This document shows positions 3,547-11,222 of a stretch of 32,223 bases of DNA, in pieces. Source of the stretch: a virus; the UHGV virus genome UHGV-1520234; one strand, 5' to 3'. Made by a program: the position numbers and the translations under genes. Numbering within the stretch: position 1 is the stretch's first letter; every line of letters starts with the position of its first letter. The notes under the pieces were generated by a model. That model was not told the origin of the DNA. It was given only the letters and a program-made list of their open reading frames with translations, and made no database searches.

Positions 3547-3899
3547 TACGCCTCCGATGTAACAGTCGTTATTCCATAAAGAGTGTCGATTTCAGCGGAA
3601 AACATGACACGTCGGGTCGTGGTATCCACCGTCGTATTGAAAGAGAGGATTGATTTAACGCCCCGCGTTTCGAGGATGCGCTTACGGATCGCCAGGTTGT
3701 AGGTTTCCGGCTTCTGCTTACCGAGTACGGACTGGATCCACGGAGTCCCCTCGGTGGTGTCGAGAAACCATTGCCCATACCACAATTCGAATCGCGTTTT
3801 TACCGCCTGCGCCACGGCCTCCGGTGAGTTAATCAGCCAGGTATCATCGCCGCTGCCAAAGGTGTAATCACAGTCGGCGTCTTCGCGTCTGTATCGCAT
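3546..3899 (-). CDS. Baseplate protein (Mu gp46 / gpW-gp25-like)
   Basis: 117-aa ORF tightly coupled to its neighbours in the conserved Mu-like baseplate order. Confidence 0.5.
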   Translation of the reverse strand: MRYRREDADCDYTFGSGDDTWLINSPEAVAQAVKTRFELWYGQWFLDTTEGTPWIQSVLGKQKPETYNLAIRKRILETRGVKSILSFNTTVDTTTRRVMFSAEIDTLYGITTVTSEA

Positions 3900-4651
3900 C
3901 AGTTCACCCCGTCTGTGTTGCTTCCGCCTCGCTGAACCCCGCCGTGCGTGTGCGTATCATCAATTGACTTGCCGTTAGCCTTAACGCTCCCCAAGAACTC
4001 AACAGCACCAGTGATTTTTGAAGCCACACCAGAAACAACAGACCCCACCATGCCCCCCATCCAGGTTAACAGGCCATGAATGGTTACTTTCTCAGAAAAA
4101 TCAGCCAGAGGGGCAACCACATCAAGACCACCCGGAGCGACAATTTTAATTTTCCTGGTGTCAGGATTAAGCTCAAAATAGGTGCTGCCGTCGTCACTAC
4201 GCAACTGTGTGGCACTGGTATTAATACCGCTAATCTTCCTCGCCTGCGACTGGGGACCGACAATACAAAACGCATCCGATAAATCATGCATTCTGTCATC
4301 GACCGGCTCCTGTATCCCGCCACTCTGCCACCAGAAATCAATACAACGATCGGCAAAAACGACAAGACACTCATCCCCGGCTTTTACCGGAAAAGTCAAC
4401 GTGCAGCCTCCGCCGCGCGGGAATACCACTGGCACATCCACCAGCAGGGGTAATGTCGTCGACTGGTTGATTCCATTTGAGTCCGGCTCATAGCCTTTAA
4501 TCGCAGGTTGAACAACTACCGTTACCGTGTCCGGATCAAATGACTGGACAATTCCGGGCAGAGAAACACGCAGTGCCGACATGACAGAACCAGCAAGTCT
4601 TACATCGGCCTGTTCTTTGCTACCAAGTTGAGCGCTTAAAGAAACGGGCAT
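3899..4651 (-). CDS. Baseplate spike / assembly protein V-like (Mu gp45-like)
   Basis: 250-aa ORF, ATG at 4651 preceded by GGAG; N-terminal region (PGIVQSFDP...LPLLVDVPVVFPRGGG) resembles gpV/gp45 spike proteins. Confidence 0.55.
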   Translation of the reverse strand: MPVSLSAQLGSKEQADVRLAGSVMSALRVSLPGIVQSFDPDTVTVVVQPAIKGYEPDSNGINQSTTLPLLVDVPVVFPRGGGCTLTFPVKAGDECLVVFADRCIDFWWQSGGIQEPVDDRMHDLSDAFCIVGPQSQARKISGINTSATQLRSDDGSTYFELNPDTRKIKIVAPGGLDVVAPLADFSEKVTIHGLLTWMGGMVGSVVSGVASKITGAVEFLGSVKANGKSIDDTHTHGGVQRGGSNTDGVN

Positions 4652-4670
4652 TCATATGTCTCCAGAAAGT

Positions 4671-4698
4671 AAAAAACCCAGCCAAAGCTGGGTTTTTT
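4671..4698. terminator. Bidirectional intrinsic terminator between ant and the baseplate spike gene
   Basis: A6 tract, stem cccagc (4677-4682), loop caaa, stem gctggg (4687-4692), T6 tract (4693-4698); the hairpin is followed by a U-run on both strands. Confidence 0.65.
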
Positions 4699-4711
4699 AA
4701 GTTGTCAATTG

Positions 4712-5626
4712 TCAGTAACGATGCAGTGAAGGCGGCAACTCTTTGTTCTTAAGTCTTACCCATGCGGAAAGATTCGTTGGTCCGTCTGGCTCATTGATAT
4801 CAACATCTCGTGTGTGGTTGATTAAAACGTCTCTCGCCATTCCGATAACATACGAAAACTCATGACCGTAGTCGTAGCATCTTCCGGAATAGTTCGATTG
4901 AATTTGTTTTAATGCCGGATACAGTTCGCGGAATAATGCCTGTGATCGGTTAGCATAATCCCACAACCATACAAGGCTGTTTGCTTCTTTTGCAGAAAGC
5001 TCGTTGGTGCTCTTCTCTTGTTTGCCAATGAACTCACCTTCAAGTGGAACTCGAGCTGCAAGTGACAGTGCTTCGGTAAACTGCTCCTCACTGATTTCTT
5101 TGTACGAACAGCCAAAATGAGATTTCAGTGACGACCACATGGTGATCATCGCCTTCGCCTGTTTTTCTTTTGGCAGAGACTGACCGCGACTCATGACGAG
5201 TTGTTTAATAGCTTCCTGCTGTTCAGTGGTGATTTTACCCGGCAACGCCTTTTTAGCTTTCGGTGTATTTCCGTAAGACCCCGTTTTACGAATGGATGGC
5301 AAAACTTCAGCTGTCACCCATTTGCGGAATTTGTGCGGGACTGAACCTTTATTGACGGCATCACGGCAGCGCAGAACCAATGTATACATACCTGATTCGC
5401 TCACAATGCTTAAATTCTGCTCACCACCAAGGGTGTAACTTAAAGTTACTCCCTTCTCATCGTCATCAAGTGCAGTAAGCGCCTTGCGTGAGTTAGTCAG
5501 AGTTAAAGCATCACAAACATCTTTTGCTACAAACCACGGCTCACCGCACCTGTTGATGACGCGGATTTCACTGTCGCCGAATTTGAAGATGGTGAAATCG
5601 TTTTGTGCCTTTGCTATACTTTTCAT
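4712..5626 (-). CDS. ant: Antirepressor (Bro-N domain, P22 Ant-like)
   Basis: 304-aa ORF with an ATG start; N-terminus ([30 protein letters not shown]...[12 protein letters not shown]...[12 protein letters not shown]) matches the Bro-N antirepressor signature. Lies downstream of an arc-like gene as in P22 immI. Confidence 0.7.
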
Positions 5627-5697
5627 GTCAATATTTCCCGATCAGATTTGTTGATGTAGAAGCCTCGCCAGTTCCCGCTGTCGGGGCTTCGTTATTT

Positions 5698-5859
5698 TTA
5701 GAGAGCATTCCGCATTTTCTCCCGGTACTTCAACCACCAAGCTAATCCTTGAACCAACACTGAGTTTTCTGACATTCCCTCTTCCTCTGCAATGCGCTTA
5801 ACTTCTTCCTTAAAGCGGTACGGGTAGCGAAGAGTTGTCTTTACTTCATTCTTTTCCAT
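5698..5859 (-). CDS. arc: Arc-like ribbon-helix-helix repressor (53 aa, not in the ORF track)
   Basis: Translated by hand: MEKNEVKTTLRYPYRFKEEVKRIAEEEGMSENSVLVQGLAWWLKYREKMRNAL. ATG at 5859 preceded by GGAGACAGC; same length and RHH pattern as P22 Arc, directly upstream of ant. Confidence 0.6.
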   Translation of the reverse strand: MEKNEVKTTLRYPYRFKEEVKRIAEEEGMSENSVLVQGLAWWLKYREKMRNAL

Positions 5860-5881
5860 GCTGTCTCCTTATTTCACAATG

Positions 5882-5945
5882 AAGGCAAATTGCCTTTAGA
5901 GTCAATTTACCATGATTGCACATGAAGTCAAGTTGCCTCTACAAT
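5882..5945. promoter_or_regulatory. Divergent overlapping promoters (Pant-like leftward, Pmnt-like rightward) with palindromic operator
   Basis: Perfect 15-bp palindrome AAGGCAAATTGCCTT (5882-5896). Minus-strand promoter: -35 TTGACT (5931..5926), 16-bp spacer, -10 TAAATT (5909..5904), placing the palindrome at about +1 to +15. Plus-strand promoter: -35 ttgcac (5916-5921), 18-bp spacer, -10 tacaat (5940-5945), upstream of mnt. Confidence 0.45.
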
Positions 5946-5966
5946 GATTTTTATTTGAGGTGAGTT

Positions 5967-6290
5967 ATGTCAGAAAAATTTCCCAGCCAAATGCAAGACA
6001 AGTTCACCGTGAGGTTTCCTGACGGATTGCGCGATGCTATAGCTGAACGAGCTAAACGTAATGGCAGATCAATGAACTCAGAGATTGTGCAGATACTGGA
6101 AGATGCCTTGAATGCAGAAAATACTCTTGGGGAAATAGCAGATAAAATTAACAGCGTCTCGGTTCCGCTAAATGTTGATGCGCTAGTTCAACTTCAAGCC
6201 CAAGTTATCGCCATGCAAAAAGAAATACAGGAAAAGTTCAGAGAGCAGAACGAAAAGTTGAGAGAACTGCTAAACAAAAAACCCACCTGA
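5967..6290 (+). CDS. mnt: Mnt-like ribbon-helix-helix repressor with C-terminal coiled coil
   Basis: 107-aa ORF, ATG with GAGGTGAG RBS; N-terminal RHH motif (FTVRFPDGLRDAIAERAKRNGRSMNSEIVQILEDAL) and heptad-like C-terminus. It is one of only two plus-strand genes and is divergent from arc-ant. Confidence 0.6.
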   Translation: MSEKFPSQMQDKFTVRFPDGLRDAIAERAKRNGRSMNSEIVQILEDALNAENTLGEIADKINSVSVPLNVDALVQLQAQVIAMQKEIQEKFREQNEKLRELLNKKPT

Positions 6291-6298
6291 CGGTGGGT
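6274..6298 (-). terminator. Intrinsic terminator for the minus-strand transcript
   Basis: Stem acccacc (6281-6287) / ggtgggt (6292-6298) with a 4-nt loop that contains the mnt stop codon; on the minus strand the hairpin is followed by UUUUUUG (plus A-tract 6274-6280). Confidence 0.6.
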
Positions 6299-6314
6299 TA
6301 CGGAGAGGGCAAGA

Positions 6315-6650
6315 TCATTTAACCTTCCGGCAATCATACGTCCAGAACTCCCGAGGCTCGTCCATATTTTTGCGGATAACTTCAACGTTGAGGATCGCTT
6401 TTTTGTTTCGTTTGATGTAGTCCATACCTAACCAACGTCCAGTATTAGGATCAGGTAACATCCATTGCATCATGACATTATCGAAATCGTCTTTTTGTTT
6501 CAAAAAGGTCATTTTTTGTGTTTCTGGCTTTTGACCATTGATGTGCATGAGGCCATCATTACCAGCATCAAAGCGGAATGGTCCGCACTGCGTTGCCGCC
6601 GAAACGGTTAACGGCAGGGCCAAGAATAAACAAAAAAATACTTTTTTCAC
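6315..6650 (-). CDS. Hypothetical secreted protein with N-terminal signal peptide
   Basis: 111-aa ORF starting with GTG at 6650 that overlaps the upstream stop (GTGA), with GGAG 7 nt upstream. N-terminus MKKVFFCLFLALPLTVSAATQ has the n/h/c architecture of a Sec signal peptide; there is no lipobox. Confidence 0.5.
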   Translation of the reverse strand: MKKVFFCLFLALPLTVSAATQCGPFRFDAGNDGLMHINGQKPETQKMTFLKQKDDFDNVMMQWMLPDPNTGRWLGMDYIKRNKKAILNVEVIRKNMDEPREFWTYDCRKVK

Positions 6651-7681
6651 TCTACATCTCCGACTTTGTCCAAAGTGCCTTTTGCCAATAGTTCTTTGCC
6701 ACCTTTAGCCAGGCAAAGCAGGTCCATATACCACGCCTGCCCTCGGGTGTCGCCAGTATAATCAATGCTGCCCACAATGTAATCACCGTCAGTATTAATG
6801 CTGGCAGGCTGTGACATGCCTGGCAGACCGTTAACGTAGAGATTACCGTCGCTTTCAGACTCATCCAGTCGTGCTGGCGATTTCGCTACCTGGTCATTAC
6901 TCAAAGAGGCACGGTATACAGATGCCTGATCCAGACGAATAAGCCCACCGAGCTTAATATTTGGATTAATCAGACATCTGACATTTACGCCAGCTCCCAT
7001 CGTCTGCTGTGGCATACCGATAAGCCCGGTGTTAGCATTCAACACCGTAGCAACACCAATATATTTATCTTCAGGAACAATATTTACCAGATTATTTTCA
7101 TACCACCAGTTAGCTTTACACTGCCCTGCGATATGATTCATCAACCTTGATGTGTTTTGATAAACAACGCGACCCCGGGGAAATACCGTTTCGGGCATGT
7201 CAGGAACTGCGCCGGATTCGATGCCATATGGTTCGAATGATTTCATACCCAGACTGAAAAGATCGCTGTACTTCCAGCCAGCAGCCACTGTGGTTTTCAC
7301 ACTTGCGTTCAGGTGACCTTCCCAGCTGTCAATACACTGCAACATGATCCAACTGTCTGTGGCATTATCTTTACCAGTGACAGTAAAACGGATATCTCCA
7401 TTGAATATCATGCCAACGTTTTCATCAGGATAATTACCCGCTGCATCCGGTTGCCCCTTGTATCCGGCAATAACCTGTATACGCGAAAACTCCTTCTGCA
7501 TAATCCGGTTCTGAGTGGTAGGAGACAGGTTATAAACCTTAAAATTCCCAACGAATCCATTAAATATGGTCGCAGGCATTTTCTGAATATTGAAAGTGAC
7601 TTTAAGCTCAGAAATTTTTATCCCGTCGCCCTTATCATCAACAAGCAATAATTCAAAGTGACGCATCCAGTTTTTCGACAT
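6647..7681 (-). CDS. Baseplate/tail protein (position of Mu gp44 / P2 gpD-like hub)
   Basis: 344-aa ORF with an ATG start in the conserved tail operon; family assignment by synteny only. Confidence 0.45.
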   Translation of the reverse strand: MSKNWMRHFELLLVDDKGDGIKISELKVTFNIQKMPATIFNGFVGNFKVYNLSPTTQNRIMQKEFSRIQVIAGYKGQPDAAGNYPDENVGMIFNGDIRFTVTGKDNATDSWIMLQCIDSWEGHLNASVKTTVAAGWKYSDLFSLGMKSFEPYGIESGAVPDMPETVFPRGRVVYQNTSRLMNHIAGQCKANWWYENNLVNIVPEDKYIGVATVLNANTGLIGMPQQTMGAGVNVRCLINPNIKLGGLIRLDQASVYRASLSNDQVAKSPARLDESESDGNLYVNGLPGMSQPASINTDGDYIVGSIDYTGDTRGQAWYMDLLCLAKGGKELLAKGTLDKVGDVE

Positions 7682-7989: not shown

Positions 7990-8640
7990 TCACCTTCCCA
8001 GAAATAAATTGCTCAGATACCCATCAACAGTGGTGACACCTTTTTGCGCTATCTGTGGCAGCGATTTCAGAATGGAATTATTCGGCGGCACCGTTGTTTT
8101 GGTGCCTGTATTCTGCACAGCAGACGTTCCGACTCCCTCGGTCATATTGTTTTTCGTGGCTACCCTGACTGACTGCGTGGAGGTAATAATTACTTCCCTG
8201 AGGGTAAGTGTCGCCAGAAGCACATTTTCACTACTCTTATCGGTCGTGACCTCCAGCGTTTTTATCAACATATTGTTGTAAATACGCTTGCCGGTTGTCA
8301 CATCGAAAGGAATACGATTCCGCTGCAGGTTAAGCAGTTCCTGATACAGTTCTTTCGGGCTCAGCCCCAGTAAACTGGTAGCCGTCAGGTTACTGGCAAA
8401 ATCAAGCAGCGATCCGCCTCCGGAAAAACCGGTTTCCATCACAACCTCAGAAGGGCGCCTGAATGCGTGTTCTGATATGTAACCAGCGCCCTCACCACTG
8501 GCGCCAGCATTCGTGGGCTGTTCAACCGGATGTTCCGTAATTTCCAGGGCGTCAGTGTGCTTTTCGGTAATAACCACATCAGGAATAATGATTCCTATTG
8601 AGCGGGTTCGCTGCTGCAGTAAAACAGATAAAAAGTCCAT
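7990..8640 (-). CDS. Hypothetical tail/baseplate protein
   Basis: 216-aa ORF whose ATG abuts the tape measure stop codon. Confidence 0.4.
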   Translation of the reverse strand: MDFLSVLLQQRTRSIGIIIPDVVITEKHTDALEITEHPVEQPTNAGASGEGAGYISEHAFRRPSEVVMETGFSGGGSLLDFASNLTATSLLGLSPKELYQELLNLQRNRIPFDVTTGKRIYNNMLIKTLEVTTDKSSENVLLATLTLREVIITSTQSVRVATKNNMTEGVGTSAVQNTGTKTTVPPNNSILKSLPQIAQKGVTTVDGYLSNLFLGR

Positions 8641-10592
8641 TACGCAGGTCCTTTCAATTGCTGTACCGCCCTGGCATTTACAGCCCCCTGCTTGTCAGCG
8701 ATCAGATTAGCCGCCTCCTGAGGGTTGTTAACTCCATGAACATTTATAACAGTCTGCTGGTTAAGGCTGCCAGCGGCGGCCTGATACGCCAGCGGGCTGT
8801 TCCAGTTTGAATAACCTTCTTTGCGCGCCATCGACTGCATCAATGCTCCCATAGTACGGGGATCTGTAAGATTCAATATTGCATTCGGTGATACTCCCAT
8901 CCATTTCGCAACATCCTGTGCATACTTTTTCGGATCGTTGTTATCACCTGCCGGGGCCCAGGTACTGACAATATCCTGAATAGTCTGTAATGCCCGTCCG
9001 GTTGTTTTCCCGGTAAAGTAACGCATGAGCTGGTTTTTCATCGCCTCCCAGCCCTCAAGAGCTGATTCGAAAAACCGGAACCCTTTACCGCTCACCGGGC
9101 GAATATTCCCTGGATTGTTATTCCGATCGGCTAAAGTACGCTTCGTAGCCTGTGCATGTTGTTCCGGCTCAGCACCTGGAATATCTGACTGAATATTTGC
9201 GCCTTTTACGGTATGAGGATTACGACCAAAATCGGTATCAATGCCAAGCCAGCGCAATGAATCTCCAATATTTTGTTTCGTGTAATCCCAGGATGACTTC
9301 GCACTGGTACCAATATTTTCGCGATCGGAGTACAAATAAGCAGCATAAGCCATCCAGCCTTTTAACCATGGCGGTACCGGCAAACCAGATATTTTCCCGA
9401 AAGCCCCCAGGACCTTGGATACCCAGACACCCGCGATGAATGTACCGAGGATTTCCAATGATTTTTGCCAGCCGCCAACACCATCTTTTAGTTCCAGAAG
9501 GTGATCACGAAGCCAGGTGATCGCATCCTTCGCTTTATCTATTGCCGGTTGCCATTTTTCCCAGTCGATAAGACTGTTACCGCCTTCTTTCCATGTTTTG
9601 TAGTCTTCCCACAAGAGACTGAGAGCCACGATCAGACCGGTAATCAGCCCTATAGGTGACATCCAGAAAGTAGAGTTAAGTATCCGCATGGCGACAACCA
9701 GACCGCCGATAACCTCTATCAGGGTTTTCGTTTCGGCATCCAGTTTTCCCCACCACTCGATGATATCTCCGACACCATCGACTATCCGAAATGCAACCCG
9801 CCCGACTATCTCACCCAGCCAGAGGATCCCCTTTATGACCTTTGTGATGGTGACTTCAATTTTGGGAAAATTTTCAATTATCTTTTTGCGCAGGTTATCA
9901 ATCTGCCCCGCCAGTCCGTCCGCAAGATTCGATCCGATTTTGTCCCGCGCCATCCCGGCCATTTCACCGAGCGATTTCAGCGAGGTCATAAACCGGTTTG
10001 ACGATAAGGCAGCCTGATCGGCATTAAATCCGATAGCTTTCGCCATTGCGCTGTACTGCCCGGAGAACCCCCCCACACCCCGGCGCATCGCCATAAGGGT
10101 ATTTTCGTCAATGCCCAGCATCTGCGCATACTGGTTAGCCCGGTAATACGGCATGCTGCTGAGCTTCTGGCCGACGCCCGTAAAGATAGCGGCCATGTCG
10201 CGCATGTTACCGCTGGCGTCACGGGTCTGTACCCCCAGACGATTCAGAAATCCCTCCGCCCCGGGATTATTACGAATAAACCGGGAGAGGTTTTCCAGAG
10301 AAGATCGCGCAGCGTCCACGCTGCCGCCAACCTGCGAAACCGCATAGCCAATAGACTGAATCCCCTGAACCGTCGCGCCGGTGCGCTGTGACGCCCAGTA
10401 GAGATTATCCAGACCGGAGGCGATCTTAGCCGTGAAGGCCACCACGGACAGCGCAGCTCCTTCAACAGCCAGCCCCATTTTGATGACATTTGCAGTTGTA
10501 CCGGCGAGGACAGAACCGAACTTTTTCGCTCCTGCATCATCCACACTGAAGCCAAGCGAGACGAGGAAATCTTTAATAGTTTCAGCGTTCAT
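8640..10592 (-). CDS. Tail tape measure protein
   Basis: Largest ORF in the tail module, with hydrophobic segments. The track start at 10613 is a TTG; the first ATG is at 10592 (MNAETIKDFL...) with GAGAGG upstream. Sits directly downstream of the chaperone frameshift window. Confidence 0.7.
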   Translation of the reverse strand: MNAETIKDFLVSLGFSVDDAGAKKFGSVLAGTTANVIKMGLAVEGAALSVVAFTAKIASGLDNLYWASQRTGATVQGIQSIGYAVSQVGGSVDAARSSLENLSRFIRNNPGAEGFLNRLGVQTRDASGNMRDMAAIFTGVGQKLSSMPYYRANQYAQMLGIDENTLMAMRRGVGGFSGQYSAMAKAIGFNADQAALSSNRFMTSLKSLGEMAGMARDKIGSNLADGLAGQIDNLRKKIIENFPKIEVTITKVIKGILWLGEIVGRVAFRIVDGVGDIIEWWGKLDAETKTLIEVIGGLVVAMRILNSTFWMSPIGLITGLIVALSLLWEDYKTWKEGGNSLIDWEKWQPAIDKAKDAITWLRDHLLELKDGVGGWQKSLEILGTFIAGVWVSKVLGAFGKISGLPVPPWLKGWMAYAAYLYSDRENIGTSAKSSWDYTKQNIGDSLRWLGIDTDFGRNPHTVKGANIQSDIPGAEPEQHAQATKRTLADRNNNPGNIRPVSGKGFRFFESALEGWEAMKNQLMRYFTGKTTGRALQTIQDIVSTWAPAGDNNDPKKYAQDVAKWMGVSPNAILNLTDPRTMGALMQSMARKEGYSNWNSPLAYQAAAGSLNQQTVINVHGVNNPQEAANLIADKQGAVNARAVQQLKGPA

Positions 10593-11222
10593 TATCCTCT
10601 CTCCATTTCTCAATGCGCCGCTGGTTATCCGCTTTTACCGCCAGATGGTCATTCAAGAGAGCAATGTCGTACAAATCGACAGAGCCATCTTTAAGTGCTG
10701 TATAAGGAATTAACCCGGCGTCAACCGGATTGAGAAGGTAAGACAGCCCGTCCGGCAGGCTGTTAAACGTCAGCCCTGTTGCAGGCTCTGCGTCGTGCTG
10801 GTAAGGGGTGTAGGCAAAAAATTTCCCAGCGAATCGGCGACCACCCGCGCCACCAGATGCAGCATGACCAGCAAGTCAATATCATCAAACATCAGTTCGC
10901 CCTGGGTAAATACCGGAACCCATCCGTCCATATGACGCCGCGATACCACCGCAAGACAGGGATGAATAATCGCACTGGTGTCATCTTCGGTCAGGGAAGA
11001 CAGTTCCTCAGCGATACGCGGGAGCATGGTTTCAAACACCGGTTTTAACTGCTCGAATTTCACGGTGTCGATTTTGCCATCAGCAGGCAAACGGGAGCGA
11101 ATGCTCCCGAAATCTGACATCATTCCTGCCAGCACCGGCAGAAGTTTGCGGGTCACTTTCAGCTGATCAAAAACGCTGAGTTTTGCCGCGCGATATTTCA
11201 CGCCTTTGATTTCGAATTCCAT
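10582..11222 (-). CDS. Predicted -1 frameshift fusion product of the tail assembly chaperone (G-T-like)
   Basis: Slippery run GGGAAATTTTTTG (minus strand, plus coordinates 10827..10815; candidate heptamers G_GGA_AAT and A_AAT_TTT) lies 18 codons before the zero-frame stop. The -1 frame is then open for 81 codons, translated by hand, and ends at the TGA at 10584..10582 just inside the tape measure start. Confidence 0.45.
10770..11222 (-). CDS. Tail assembly chaperone (zero-frame product)
   Basis: 150-aa ORF with an ATG start, between the tail tube and tape measure genes. Confidence 0.55.
   Translation of the reverse strand: MEFEIKGVKYRAAKLSVFDQLKVTRKLLPVLAGMMSDFGSIRSRLPADGKIDTVKFEQLKPVFETMLPRIAEELSSLTEDDTSAIIHPCLAVVSRRHMDGWVPVFTQGELMFDDIDLLVMLHLVARVVADSLGNFLPTPLTSTTQSLQQG

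Follow-up and report, generated by a model that had tools for sequence, protein, structure and literature searches.

The DNA analysed here, referred to below as the window, is a stretch of 32,223 nucleotides (virus genome UHGV-1520234). Its minus strand contains a 111-aa open reading frame (ORF) that starts at position 6650 and has its stop codon at 6315–6317. The GTG start codon (6650–6648) overlaps the TGA stop codon of the preceding baseplate hub gene (6649–6647) to give GTGA, and a GGAG motif at 6661–6658 lies 7 nt 5' of the GTG. The coordinates and the sequence thus agree with an earlier note on this DNA, which had described a 111-aa ORF with a GTG overlapping the stop codon of a baseplate gene and with a well-spaced GGAG. 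The GC content of the ORF is 42.3% versus 49.7% for the whole window; the corresponding values for the hub gene and the mnt-like gene are 45.3% and 42.3%, respectively.

The surrounding minus-strand tail genes encode a tape measure protein, a Dit-like protein, a plug of the Pam3-gp18 type, the hub, the spike, a sheath initiator and Baseplate_J, whereas the sheath and the tube were recognised as DUF3383 and KPP10_Orf10-like, respectively. The tail is a simple-baseplate contractile tail of the Pam3/E217 type. The tape measure protein of the window contains no recognisable SLT domain. The late region, also on the minus strand, starts from a gene for antitermination protein Q (PF03589, E 1e-57), which is followed by the lysis, head and tail genes, and a complete lambda-type lysis cassette (holin, endolysin, Rz) is present elsewhere in the window. 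As the earlier note had claimed, an immI-like cassette adjoins the ORF, with mnt-like, Arc-like and Ant genes laid out as in immI of P22. This mnt/arc/ant cargo (4712..6290) shares the slot between the hub and spike genes with the ORF and is not part of its unit. The features are collected in Table 1.

Table 1. Features in and around the slot between the hub and spike genes (positions refer to the window).
Feature	Position	Strand	Basis
Baseplate hub gene (344 aa), upstream border of the slot	6647..7681	-	phrog_196 E 3e-80; PF22759 E217_GP41 E 1.4e-7
Candidate sigma-70 promoter in the hub 3' end, ATTACA-17 nt-TATACT	6755..6783	-	Promoter scan; synonymous-site conservation
Variable end of the hub gene (last ~12-23 codons), upstream recombination boundary of the swappable cassette	6651..6720	-	Identity drop from 100% to 33-62% at ~6720 versus L084 and L002
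Translation-initiation region (GGAG, GTG and overlapping hub TGA)	6647..6661	-	Sequence
111-aa ORF, predicted exported beta-barrel protein	6315..6650	-	Translation, phrog_3443, homologs, AF2 model
Signal-peptide coding part, residues 1-18, MKKVFFCLFLALPLTVSA	6597..6650	-	Sequence, homolog features, dN/dS
Intrinsic terminator, 8-bp GC-rich stem, loop of 4, U-run	6270..6299	-	Terminator scan; RNA fold
mnt-like Arc/Mnt-type gene	5967-6290	+	Pfam Arc E 1.5e-18, reported for cargo 4712..6290
Arc-like ORF, 53 aa	5698-5859	-	immI-like cargo in 4712..6290
Ant antirepressor gene	4712-5626	-	P22AR_C and Bro-N; phrog_245 Ant
Baseplate spike gene, downstream border of the slot	3899..4651	-	PF18352 N-domain E 1.6e-44 and GpV Apex motif

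A promoter scan showed a candidate promoter within the 3' end of the hub gene, with ATTACA at 6783–6778 and TATACT at 6760–6755, about 105 nt upstream of the GTG. The number of promoter-like sites (8) was not above that in shuffles (6.0 ± 2.6), and the candidate site alone is unremarkable. We also examined the codons underlying the hexamers in 62 unique relatives. GAT was found in 59/59, TAC in 59/62, TAT in 61/62 and the four-fold degenerate ACT in 59/59, which makes these synonymous sites the best conserved in the region; the neighbouring codons for conserved residues varied, with a major-codon frequency of 0.37–0.8. All four hexamer codons were among the top five of the 31 scored columns, for which a hypergeometric estimate gives about 1.6e-4. 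This synonymous conservation of the hexamers is suggestive of a functional element at the DNA level.

The terminator begins 16 nt past the stop codon of the ORF and is strong; its predicted fold (-16 kcal/mol, z -3.9) was equalled by 0/200 shuffles. When homologous loci were inspected, a terminator lay within 70 nt of the homolog stop codon in just 19/91 loci, and the terminator of the window was common to other loci carrying mnt/ant. A terminator after the gene was therefore ruled out as a general feature of the family; it goes with the mnt/ant-type loci. In the window, the candidate promoter, the gene and the terminator together would give a moron-like layout besides the coupling to late genes.

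Predicted export, family and fold of the product

The N-terminus of the ORF product, MKKVFFCLFLALPLTVSA followed by ATQC, has an n-region containing two lysines, then a hydrophobic core of 13 residues, and V-S-A at positions -3 to -1, and signal-peptide cleavage is predicted before ATQC. The product has no lipobox, as a glutamine stands before the cysteine. The signal-peptide call was made by a heuristic scan for n/h/c features. The same scan found a basic n-region (K/R), a hydrophobic core and small -3/-1 residues each in 64/64 unique homologs, and a lipobox at the invariant cysteine in 0/64. The textbook Sec signal peptide without a lipobox that the earlier note had read from the sequence is in line with these features.

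The median pairwise dN/dS was 0.09 for the mature part versus 0.63 for the N-terminal, signal-peptide part. Strong purifying selection acts on the mature part, and a fast-changing sequence in which the features are nevertheless kept in 64/64 homologs is a pattern typical of a cleaved signal peptide, as judged by sequence comparison. The signal-peptide part was also the low-confidence region of the AlphaFold2 (AF2) model.

Two clusters of variants, P0126 and P0138, have the same domain behind a domain of roughly 190 aa that opens with a canonical lipobox (LSGC / LVSC), and the P0126 lipoprotein fusion occupies the same hub-adjacent genomic slot. The N-domain of P0126 had no Pfam or PDB relative and gave a single marginal match of 17 residues to a PHROG family of unknown function. 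Since both free and lipobox-fused versions of the domain exist, it would work in the envelope, either free or lipid-anchored. Taken together, the heuristic signal-peptide features, the invariant pair of cysteines described below and the lipoprotein-fused variant are indirect arguments by which the ORF product is predicted to be exported to the periplasm via Sec.

A remote homology search and structure prediction had been proposed in the earlier note. The former showed that the ORF product is a member of phrog_3443 (E 7.4e-48, residues 2–111 versus profile positions 2–114 of 115), and a 98%-identical homolog at an E. coli E9 locus is named 'STY1065/STY2022 family phage-derived protein' in RefSeq. 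The phrog_3443 / STY1065-STY2022 family has already been catalogued without an assigned function, and the ORF is no different from the family. In other sources, the homologs are labelled as hypothetical, as 'secreted protein' or, automatically, as 'lipoprotein'.

One search gave 134 homologs, from Escherichia, Salmonella, Klebsiella, Citrobacter, Enterobacter, Kosakonia, Erwinia, Pantoea, Pectobacterium, Rahnella, Rouxiella and others. An exhaustive profile search of 1.84 billion representatives returned just 56 clusters (50% identity), showing that the family is small and confined. An identical protein was encoded on at least 1000 E. coli and Salmonella contigs, and the family was detectable at the nucleotide level in 79/5426 complete E. 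coli genomes (about 1.5%), always on the chromosome.

Searches with the ORF product revealed no family at E <= 0.1 in Pfam or among the PADLOC-DB profiles of known anti-phage defence, and no match in NCBIfam, from which the STY1065/STY2022 model was not returned. A sequence-profile search of the PDB gave only nanobody noise (E >= 0.019). Matches to the long multi-repeat proteins P0168, P0173 and P0175 (E 7.7e-7 to 2.9e-4) were rejected as spurious profile matches to repeats or low complexity. A literature search for STY1065/STY2022 gave only astrophysics papers, the genome note on phage Mulock does not mention the gene, and virion proteomics was not found in the literature for any phage carrying it.

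The alignment of 47 sequences had 18 invariant columns, including one cysteine just past the predicted cleavage site and another near the C-terminus. With a mean pLDDT of 87 and values over 90 across most of the mature part, the AF2 model has eight beta-strands. Sequence and model both show just one hydrophobic segment, which is N-terminal and carries a cleavage motif; what remains is a soluble all-beta barrel. The invariant cysteines sit at the two ends of the barrel, and the conserved residues are mostly in the strands and in two loops, NGxxPETQK and NMDxPR. Such a distribution fits either a conserved ligand site or a protein site. The structural neighbours of the model were avidins, lipocalins and FABPs, which are generic and had low scores, and Foldseek comparison of the model with BFVD and PDB gave no match at E <= 0.001. 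In its modelled fold, the product is one of the small, generic up-and-down barrels of the calycin/avidin type, from which no function can be read.

Linkage to the hub gene and exchange of alleles

We compared 85 loci, all carrying a homolog of the ORF (80 from IMG/VR and 5 annotated). The homolog lay directly 3' of the hub homolog in 85/85 loci, and its start overlapped the hub stop codon by 1, 4 or 8 nt in 79/85, whatever the allele or start codon. The linkage was kept at protein identities of 28–33% in Salmonella phage SEN34, Klebsiella phage Mulock and E. coli phage vB_EcoM-683R1. By comparison, mnt-like genes were found in 8/85 loci and ant-like genes also in 8/85, showing that the association with immI in the window is incidental. 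The mnt/ant cassette is one among many cargoes in the slot. The earlier note had argued from the position of the ORF next to mnt, where P22 carries sieA. P22 sieA does sit between gene 16 and mnt, but the ORF follows the hub gene and not mnt, so the argument from the slot did not stand.

Several phages do not carry an intact gene. In Providencia phage PSTCR3, the hub of which is 37% identical, the hub and spike genes overlap directly and there is no homolog. Phage EKP1 (hub 74% identical) has no homolog either, and its slot contains an unrelated signal-peptide protein homologous to SEN34 gp21. Burkholderia phage Magia lacks a homolog and has a different signal-peptide protein at this place on the opposite strand, and Hafnia phage yong1 has only a 3' remnant of the last ~19 codons (ending in SSMDAPKLIGSFPCKKVPG and the stop codon) after an unrelated gene. 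The gene is dispensable to this type of baseplate. The absence, replacement or decay of the gene in these four phages speaks against a baseplate part; the earlier note had remarked that a secreted protein is not expected among baseplate components.

Loci with 97–100% identical hub genes carried alleles with a protein identity of ~62–65%, with sharp breakpoints. When the window was compared with loci L084 and L002, nucleotide identity was 97–100% through the hub gene to ~6720 and then 33–75% across the ORF. In L002, identity was back to 93–100% from ~6365 into mnt, and the spike identity of L082/L084 was 98–99%. The hub tail downstream of the conserved segment GDTRGQAWYMDLLCLAKG co-varied with the ORF allele, and this hub segment is the upstream anchor of allele exchange. 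In several relatives, the stop codon was directly followed by the 3' remnant of a different, SEN34-type allele (ending in QLLQNSMDAPKIIGSFPCK) that had been displaced. Whole cassettes carrying the alleles are thus swapped between near-identical flanks.

The distance from the homolog to the spike gene ranged from 64 to 2968 nt among relatives. The cargo in the gap between hub and spike included DUF4282 membrane proteins, Fic/Doc, HEPN-like proteins, a lipoprotein and mnt/arc/ant, as well as a zinc-ribbon/tRNA_anti-like membrane protein and membrane-anchored SEN34-gp21-like proteins. The gap is an accessory-gene hotspot, and the ORF family is at its first position, at the edge. We consider it highly probable that the ORF is an accessory, non-virion gene that stands first in the hub-spike hotspot of Pam3/E217-type tails in temperate Enterobacterales phages.

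Possible functions of the predicted exported barrel

The ORF product is best regarded as an exported accessory protein of the moron type and a candidate exclusion factor. After cleavage, the product would be a periplasmic eight-stranded beta-barrel of ~93 aa, probably disulfide-bonded. Since the whole late region from the Q gene onwards is on the minus strand, translation of the ORF would be coupled to that of the hub gene on a late transcript antiterminated by Q. In the lysogen, the candidate sigma-70 promoter in the hub 3' end probably drives its expression as well, and in the window such a transcript would end at the terminator that follows the ORF. The mature protein would most plausibly act in the periplasm, where it may hinder incoming tails from penetrating the envelope or delivering DNA, and the outcome would be superinfection exclusion or self-protection, both in lysogens and in cells late in infection. 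The explanation as a whole, i.e. a Sec-exported periplasmic barrel that is encoded by a hub-linked accessory gene and blocks incoming phage, is put forward tentatively, with a chance somewhat below even. As to the function taken by itself, we infer periplasmic interference with incoming phage tails with considerable doubt.

An entry block is favoured by the location of the product, by the company of defence-like cargo and by the recurrent allele replacement. There are precedents for such a function: P22 SieA blocks phage entry at the envelope (PMC10883804), T4 Imm binds the tape measure protein (bioRxiv 10.64898/2026.03.06.709160) and HxsA is a periplasmic effector that blocks entry (PMC13128918). 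On the other hand, exclusion genes expressed from prophages are not usually coupled so tightly to a late gene, and the internal promoter is a candidate among promoter-like sites whose count did not exceed that in shuffles. Moreover, the alleles swap without a matching change in the tape measure protein, the hub body or the spike, which disfavours a co-varying partner, and no known family was matched in Pfam, NCBIfam or PADLOC.

The only structural neighbours of the model, although with low scores, are ligand-binding barrels (avidins, lipocalins, FABPs), and the product could instead be a lysogenic-conversion or host-fitness factor, in which a periplasmic calycin/avidin-like barrel binds a small ligand or a host envelope component and helps, for example, in tolerating stress, capturing nutrients or resisting host defences. 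The conserved loops NGxxPETQK and NMDxPR cluster as though round one site, the layout is moron-like and at least 1000 E. coli and Salmonella contigs carry the exact protein, all of which would suit such a factor. We nevertheless regard it as unlikely, because the family is limited to one tail-module slot in one phage lineage, with none found outside prophages, and because the repeated allele replacement resembles conflict more than housekeeping. The family is also carried by plant, animal and environmental Enterobacterales alike and thus does not look niche-specific.

The coupling to the hub gene in 79/85 loci, the location within the Q-dependent late operon and the occurrence of a nearby terminator in just 19/91 loci argue for a phage function late in the cycle. 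The protein would be made together with the tails and either be released at lysis or be active in the periplasm late in infection, where it might prevent the loss of progeny on debris or on cells still infected, tune lysis or act on neighbouring cells in the manner of Stx, which is encoded in a late operon and exported. Such a role appears improbable to us, given that a full lambda-type lysis cassette is present elsewhere in the window, that the promoter signal within the hub gene points to expression at times other than the late phase and that related phages manage without the gene.

T4 Spackle is an exported inhibitor of tail lysozyme, and the tape measure proteins of relatives often bear PF01464 SLT domains or 'transglycosylase' annotations. 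The ORF product might correspondingly be a periplasmic inhibitor of cell-wall-degrading enzymes (PliC/MliC/Ivy-like or T4 Spackle-like), directed against the muralytic domain of incoming tails or against host lysozymes. This is, however, quite improbable, as there was no match to Pfam MliC, the PliC/MliC motifs are absent and the tape measure protein of the window has no recognisable SLT domain.

The last 12–15 hub residues and the ORF are always exchanged jointly, which would be explained if the ORF product were the cognate partner of the variable hub C-terminus. The barrel would then recognise the hub tail, or another tip element exposed by contraction, in virions of its own type and jam DNA delivery, resulting in allele-specific self-exclusion in simple-baseplate myophages. 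We regard this as a long shot. Least likely of all is a genuine component of the baseplate or tail tip, or an assembly factor, with the hydrophobic N-terminus as an uncleaved membrane-insertion segment: for all its fixed place after the hub gene and the codon overlap with it, such a role is contradicted by the canonical n/h/c features and -3/-1 site in 64/64 homologs, by the lipobox-fused variant, by the absence or replacement of the gene in phages with hubs 37–74% identical, by the presence of an allele only ~62–65% identical (protein) between hub and spike genes that are 98–99% identical, and by the lack of a counterpart family among the Pfam models for Pam3/E217-type baseplates.

If the exported barrel does block phage entry in the periplasm, a soluble beta-barrel family would be added to the few known entry-blocking proteins, and it would provide a handle on how contractile tails with simple baseplates cross the periplasm. 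Whatever the function of the ORF, the junction between hub and spike is a well-defined hotspot that could be mined for defence and counter-defence genes. The family itself, already catalogued and uncharacterised, is useful rather than surprising, and the most useful by-products of the analysis are the cassette dynamics and the hotspot.

Comparison with known systems

The gene order in P22 is gene 16 - sieA - orf59a - mnt - arc - ant - 9. Like the ORF, P22 sieA lies between the last upstream late gene and mnt, and SieA acts in the envelope against incoming phage, as the ORF product may do by analogy. However, sieA is on the mnt strand and has its own promoter, whereas the ORF is linked to the hub gene. 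[quoted passage not shown] Kinship to P22 SieA was rejected on the basis of sequence, architecture and orientation. The interpretation in the earlier note is supported in part: the ORF product is an exported, non-structural accessory protein encoded within the baseplate gene block, but the positional argument fails and SieA is unrelated. The superinfection-exclusion function that the note had put forward as a hypothesis is still a reasonable one.

PliC and MliC are periplasmic eight-stranded beta-barrels, as the ORF product is modelled to be. There was no match to the corresponding Pfam family (MliC, PF09864), and the structural score was below those of avidins and unrelated barrels.

T4 Spackle and Imm are small, envelope-targeted proteins that block penetration or DNA delivery by contractile tails, which is what we propose, by analogy, for the ORF product. 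Spackle is exported to the periplasm, inhibits the tail lysozyme and is helical, whereas the ORF model is all-beta, and there is no relation in sequence or fold to Spackle or Imm. The genes for Spackle and Imm are, in addition, early genes of a virulent phage and not residents of a tail module.

T5 Llp and phi80 Cor are envelope-targeted lipoproteins that block receptors and are encoded beside tail genes; the ORF domain, for its part, has a lipoprotein-fused variant. In T5, the exclusion gene llp is beside the tail genes to which it relates (PMC9586334). Unlike Llp and Cor, the ORF product has no lipobox, and a protein that is soluble in the periplasm could not cover the outward-facing side of a receptor.

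Among the lambdoid morons are HK97 gp15 and lambda bor and lom. They have no homology to the ORF, which, unlike them, shows translational coupling to the structural gene before it in almost every locus. The ORF nevertheless resembles them in that it is an additional gene between two that lie side by side in a relative, and HK97 gp15 is an exclusion moron in the tail region. The terminator is a further moron-like trait of the ORF. A candidate promoter of its own may be another, as may its GC content below that of the window, though the hub gene (45.3%) and the mnt-like gene (42.3%) are also below the window average.

Accessory genes between hub and spike

In the tail type of the window, the junction between the baseplate hub and spike genes (window 3899-6650) is an accessory-gene hotspot. 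In loci L001-L085, which carry a homolog of the 111-aa exported protein (the target), the distance from this homolog to the spike gene ranged from 64 to 2968 nt. When the cargo between the two was surveyed in the same loci, we found DUF4282 membrane proteins (11 loci), mnt/ant (about 9), Fic/Doc (8), HEPN-like proteins, a lipoprotein, a membrane protein with zinc-ribbon and tRNA_anti-like domains, and membrane-anchored proteins similar to SEN34 gp21.

Many relatives also carry the 3' remnant of a different target-family allele (..QLLQNSMDAPKIIGSFPCK..) directly past the stop codon of the homolog, and in Hafnia phage yong1 such a remnant is all that represents the family. These remnants are traces of repeated allele replacement. 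The target domain also occurs in a lipoprotein-fused form with an N-domain of approximately 190 aa (clusters P0126 and P0138). P0126 is intact and follows the hub gene in the same slot. P0138 belongs to a degraded prophage (L093/L094), where it adjoins CbtA/CbeA, an integrase and IS elements, and it has a frameshift close to the 3' end.

Coordinates of the features described
Feature	Locus	Position	Strand
mnt-like gene	window	5967-6290	+
Arc-like ORF (53 aa)	window	5698-5859	-
ant	window	4712-5626	-
Promoter-like sites of the cassette	window	5873-5973	both
-35/-10 pair in hub gene	window	6755-6783	-
Tape measure protein	window	8640-10613	
Allele remnant	L001	~5930-6000	
Allele remnant	L087	5017-5094	
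Allele remnant	L007, L008, L012, L084		
Allele remnant	L018/L075		
Allele remnant	L022, L034, L054, L062, L074		
P0126	L090	6001-6879	
SEN34_20	L005	4968-5312	
Hub gene, vB_EcoM-683R1	L003	3937-5001	

Hub gene, tape measure protein and related records

Beneath the promoter-like -35/-10 pair in the hub gene, synonymous codon positions are nearly invariant among 62 relatives, and the neighbouring synonymous sites vary. The pair is a possible embedded promoter directed into the slot; the same conservation may instead reflect an RNA-level or recombination signal.

The tape measure protein of the window gave only a weak PhageMin_Tail match, with no recognisable SLT domain, and its last ~170 aa (NNNPGNIR...) form an unassigned C-terminal domain. 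The tape measure proteins of relatives, by contrast, contain PF01464 SLT or bear a transglycosylase annotation.

When the ORF of SEN34_20 (Salmonella phage SEN34) is extended, it gains a predicted signal peptide and the invariant Cys, as in the target family, and its true start is probably upstream of the annotated one. In vB_EcoM-683R1, two annotated CDS (3937-4575 and 4582-5001) cover the hub gene; this split suggests that the gene is frameshifted or a pseudogene in that record, or that the sequence contains an error. The Flavobacteriia host stated for 'Elizabethkingia phage EKP1' (OM284015.1) looks doubtful, because the hub protein of this phage shares 74% identity with that of the E. coli prophage studied here, and its tail module shows synteny with those of Enterobacterales phages.

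The immI-like cassette

The cassette is complete in the window (4712-6290), and its mnt gene shares 93% identity with those of Stx-converting phages. Its promoter-like sites, lying on both strands, mirror Pmnt and Pant of P22.
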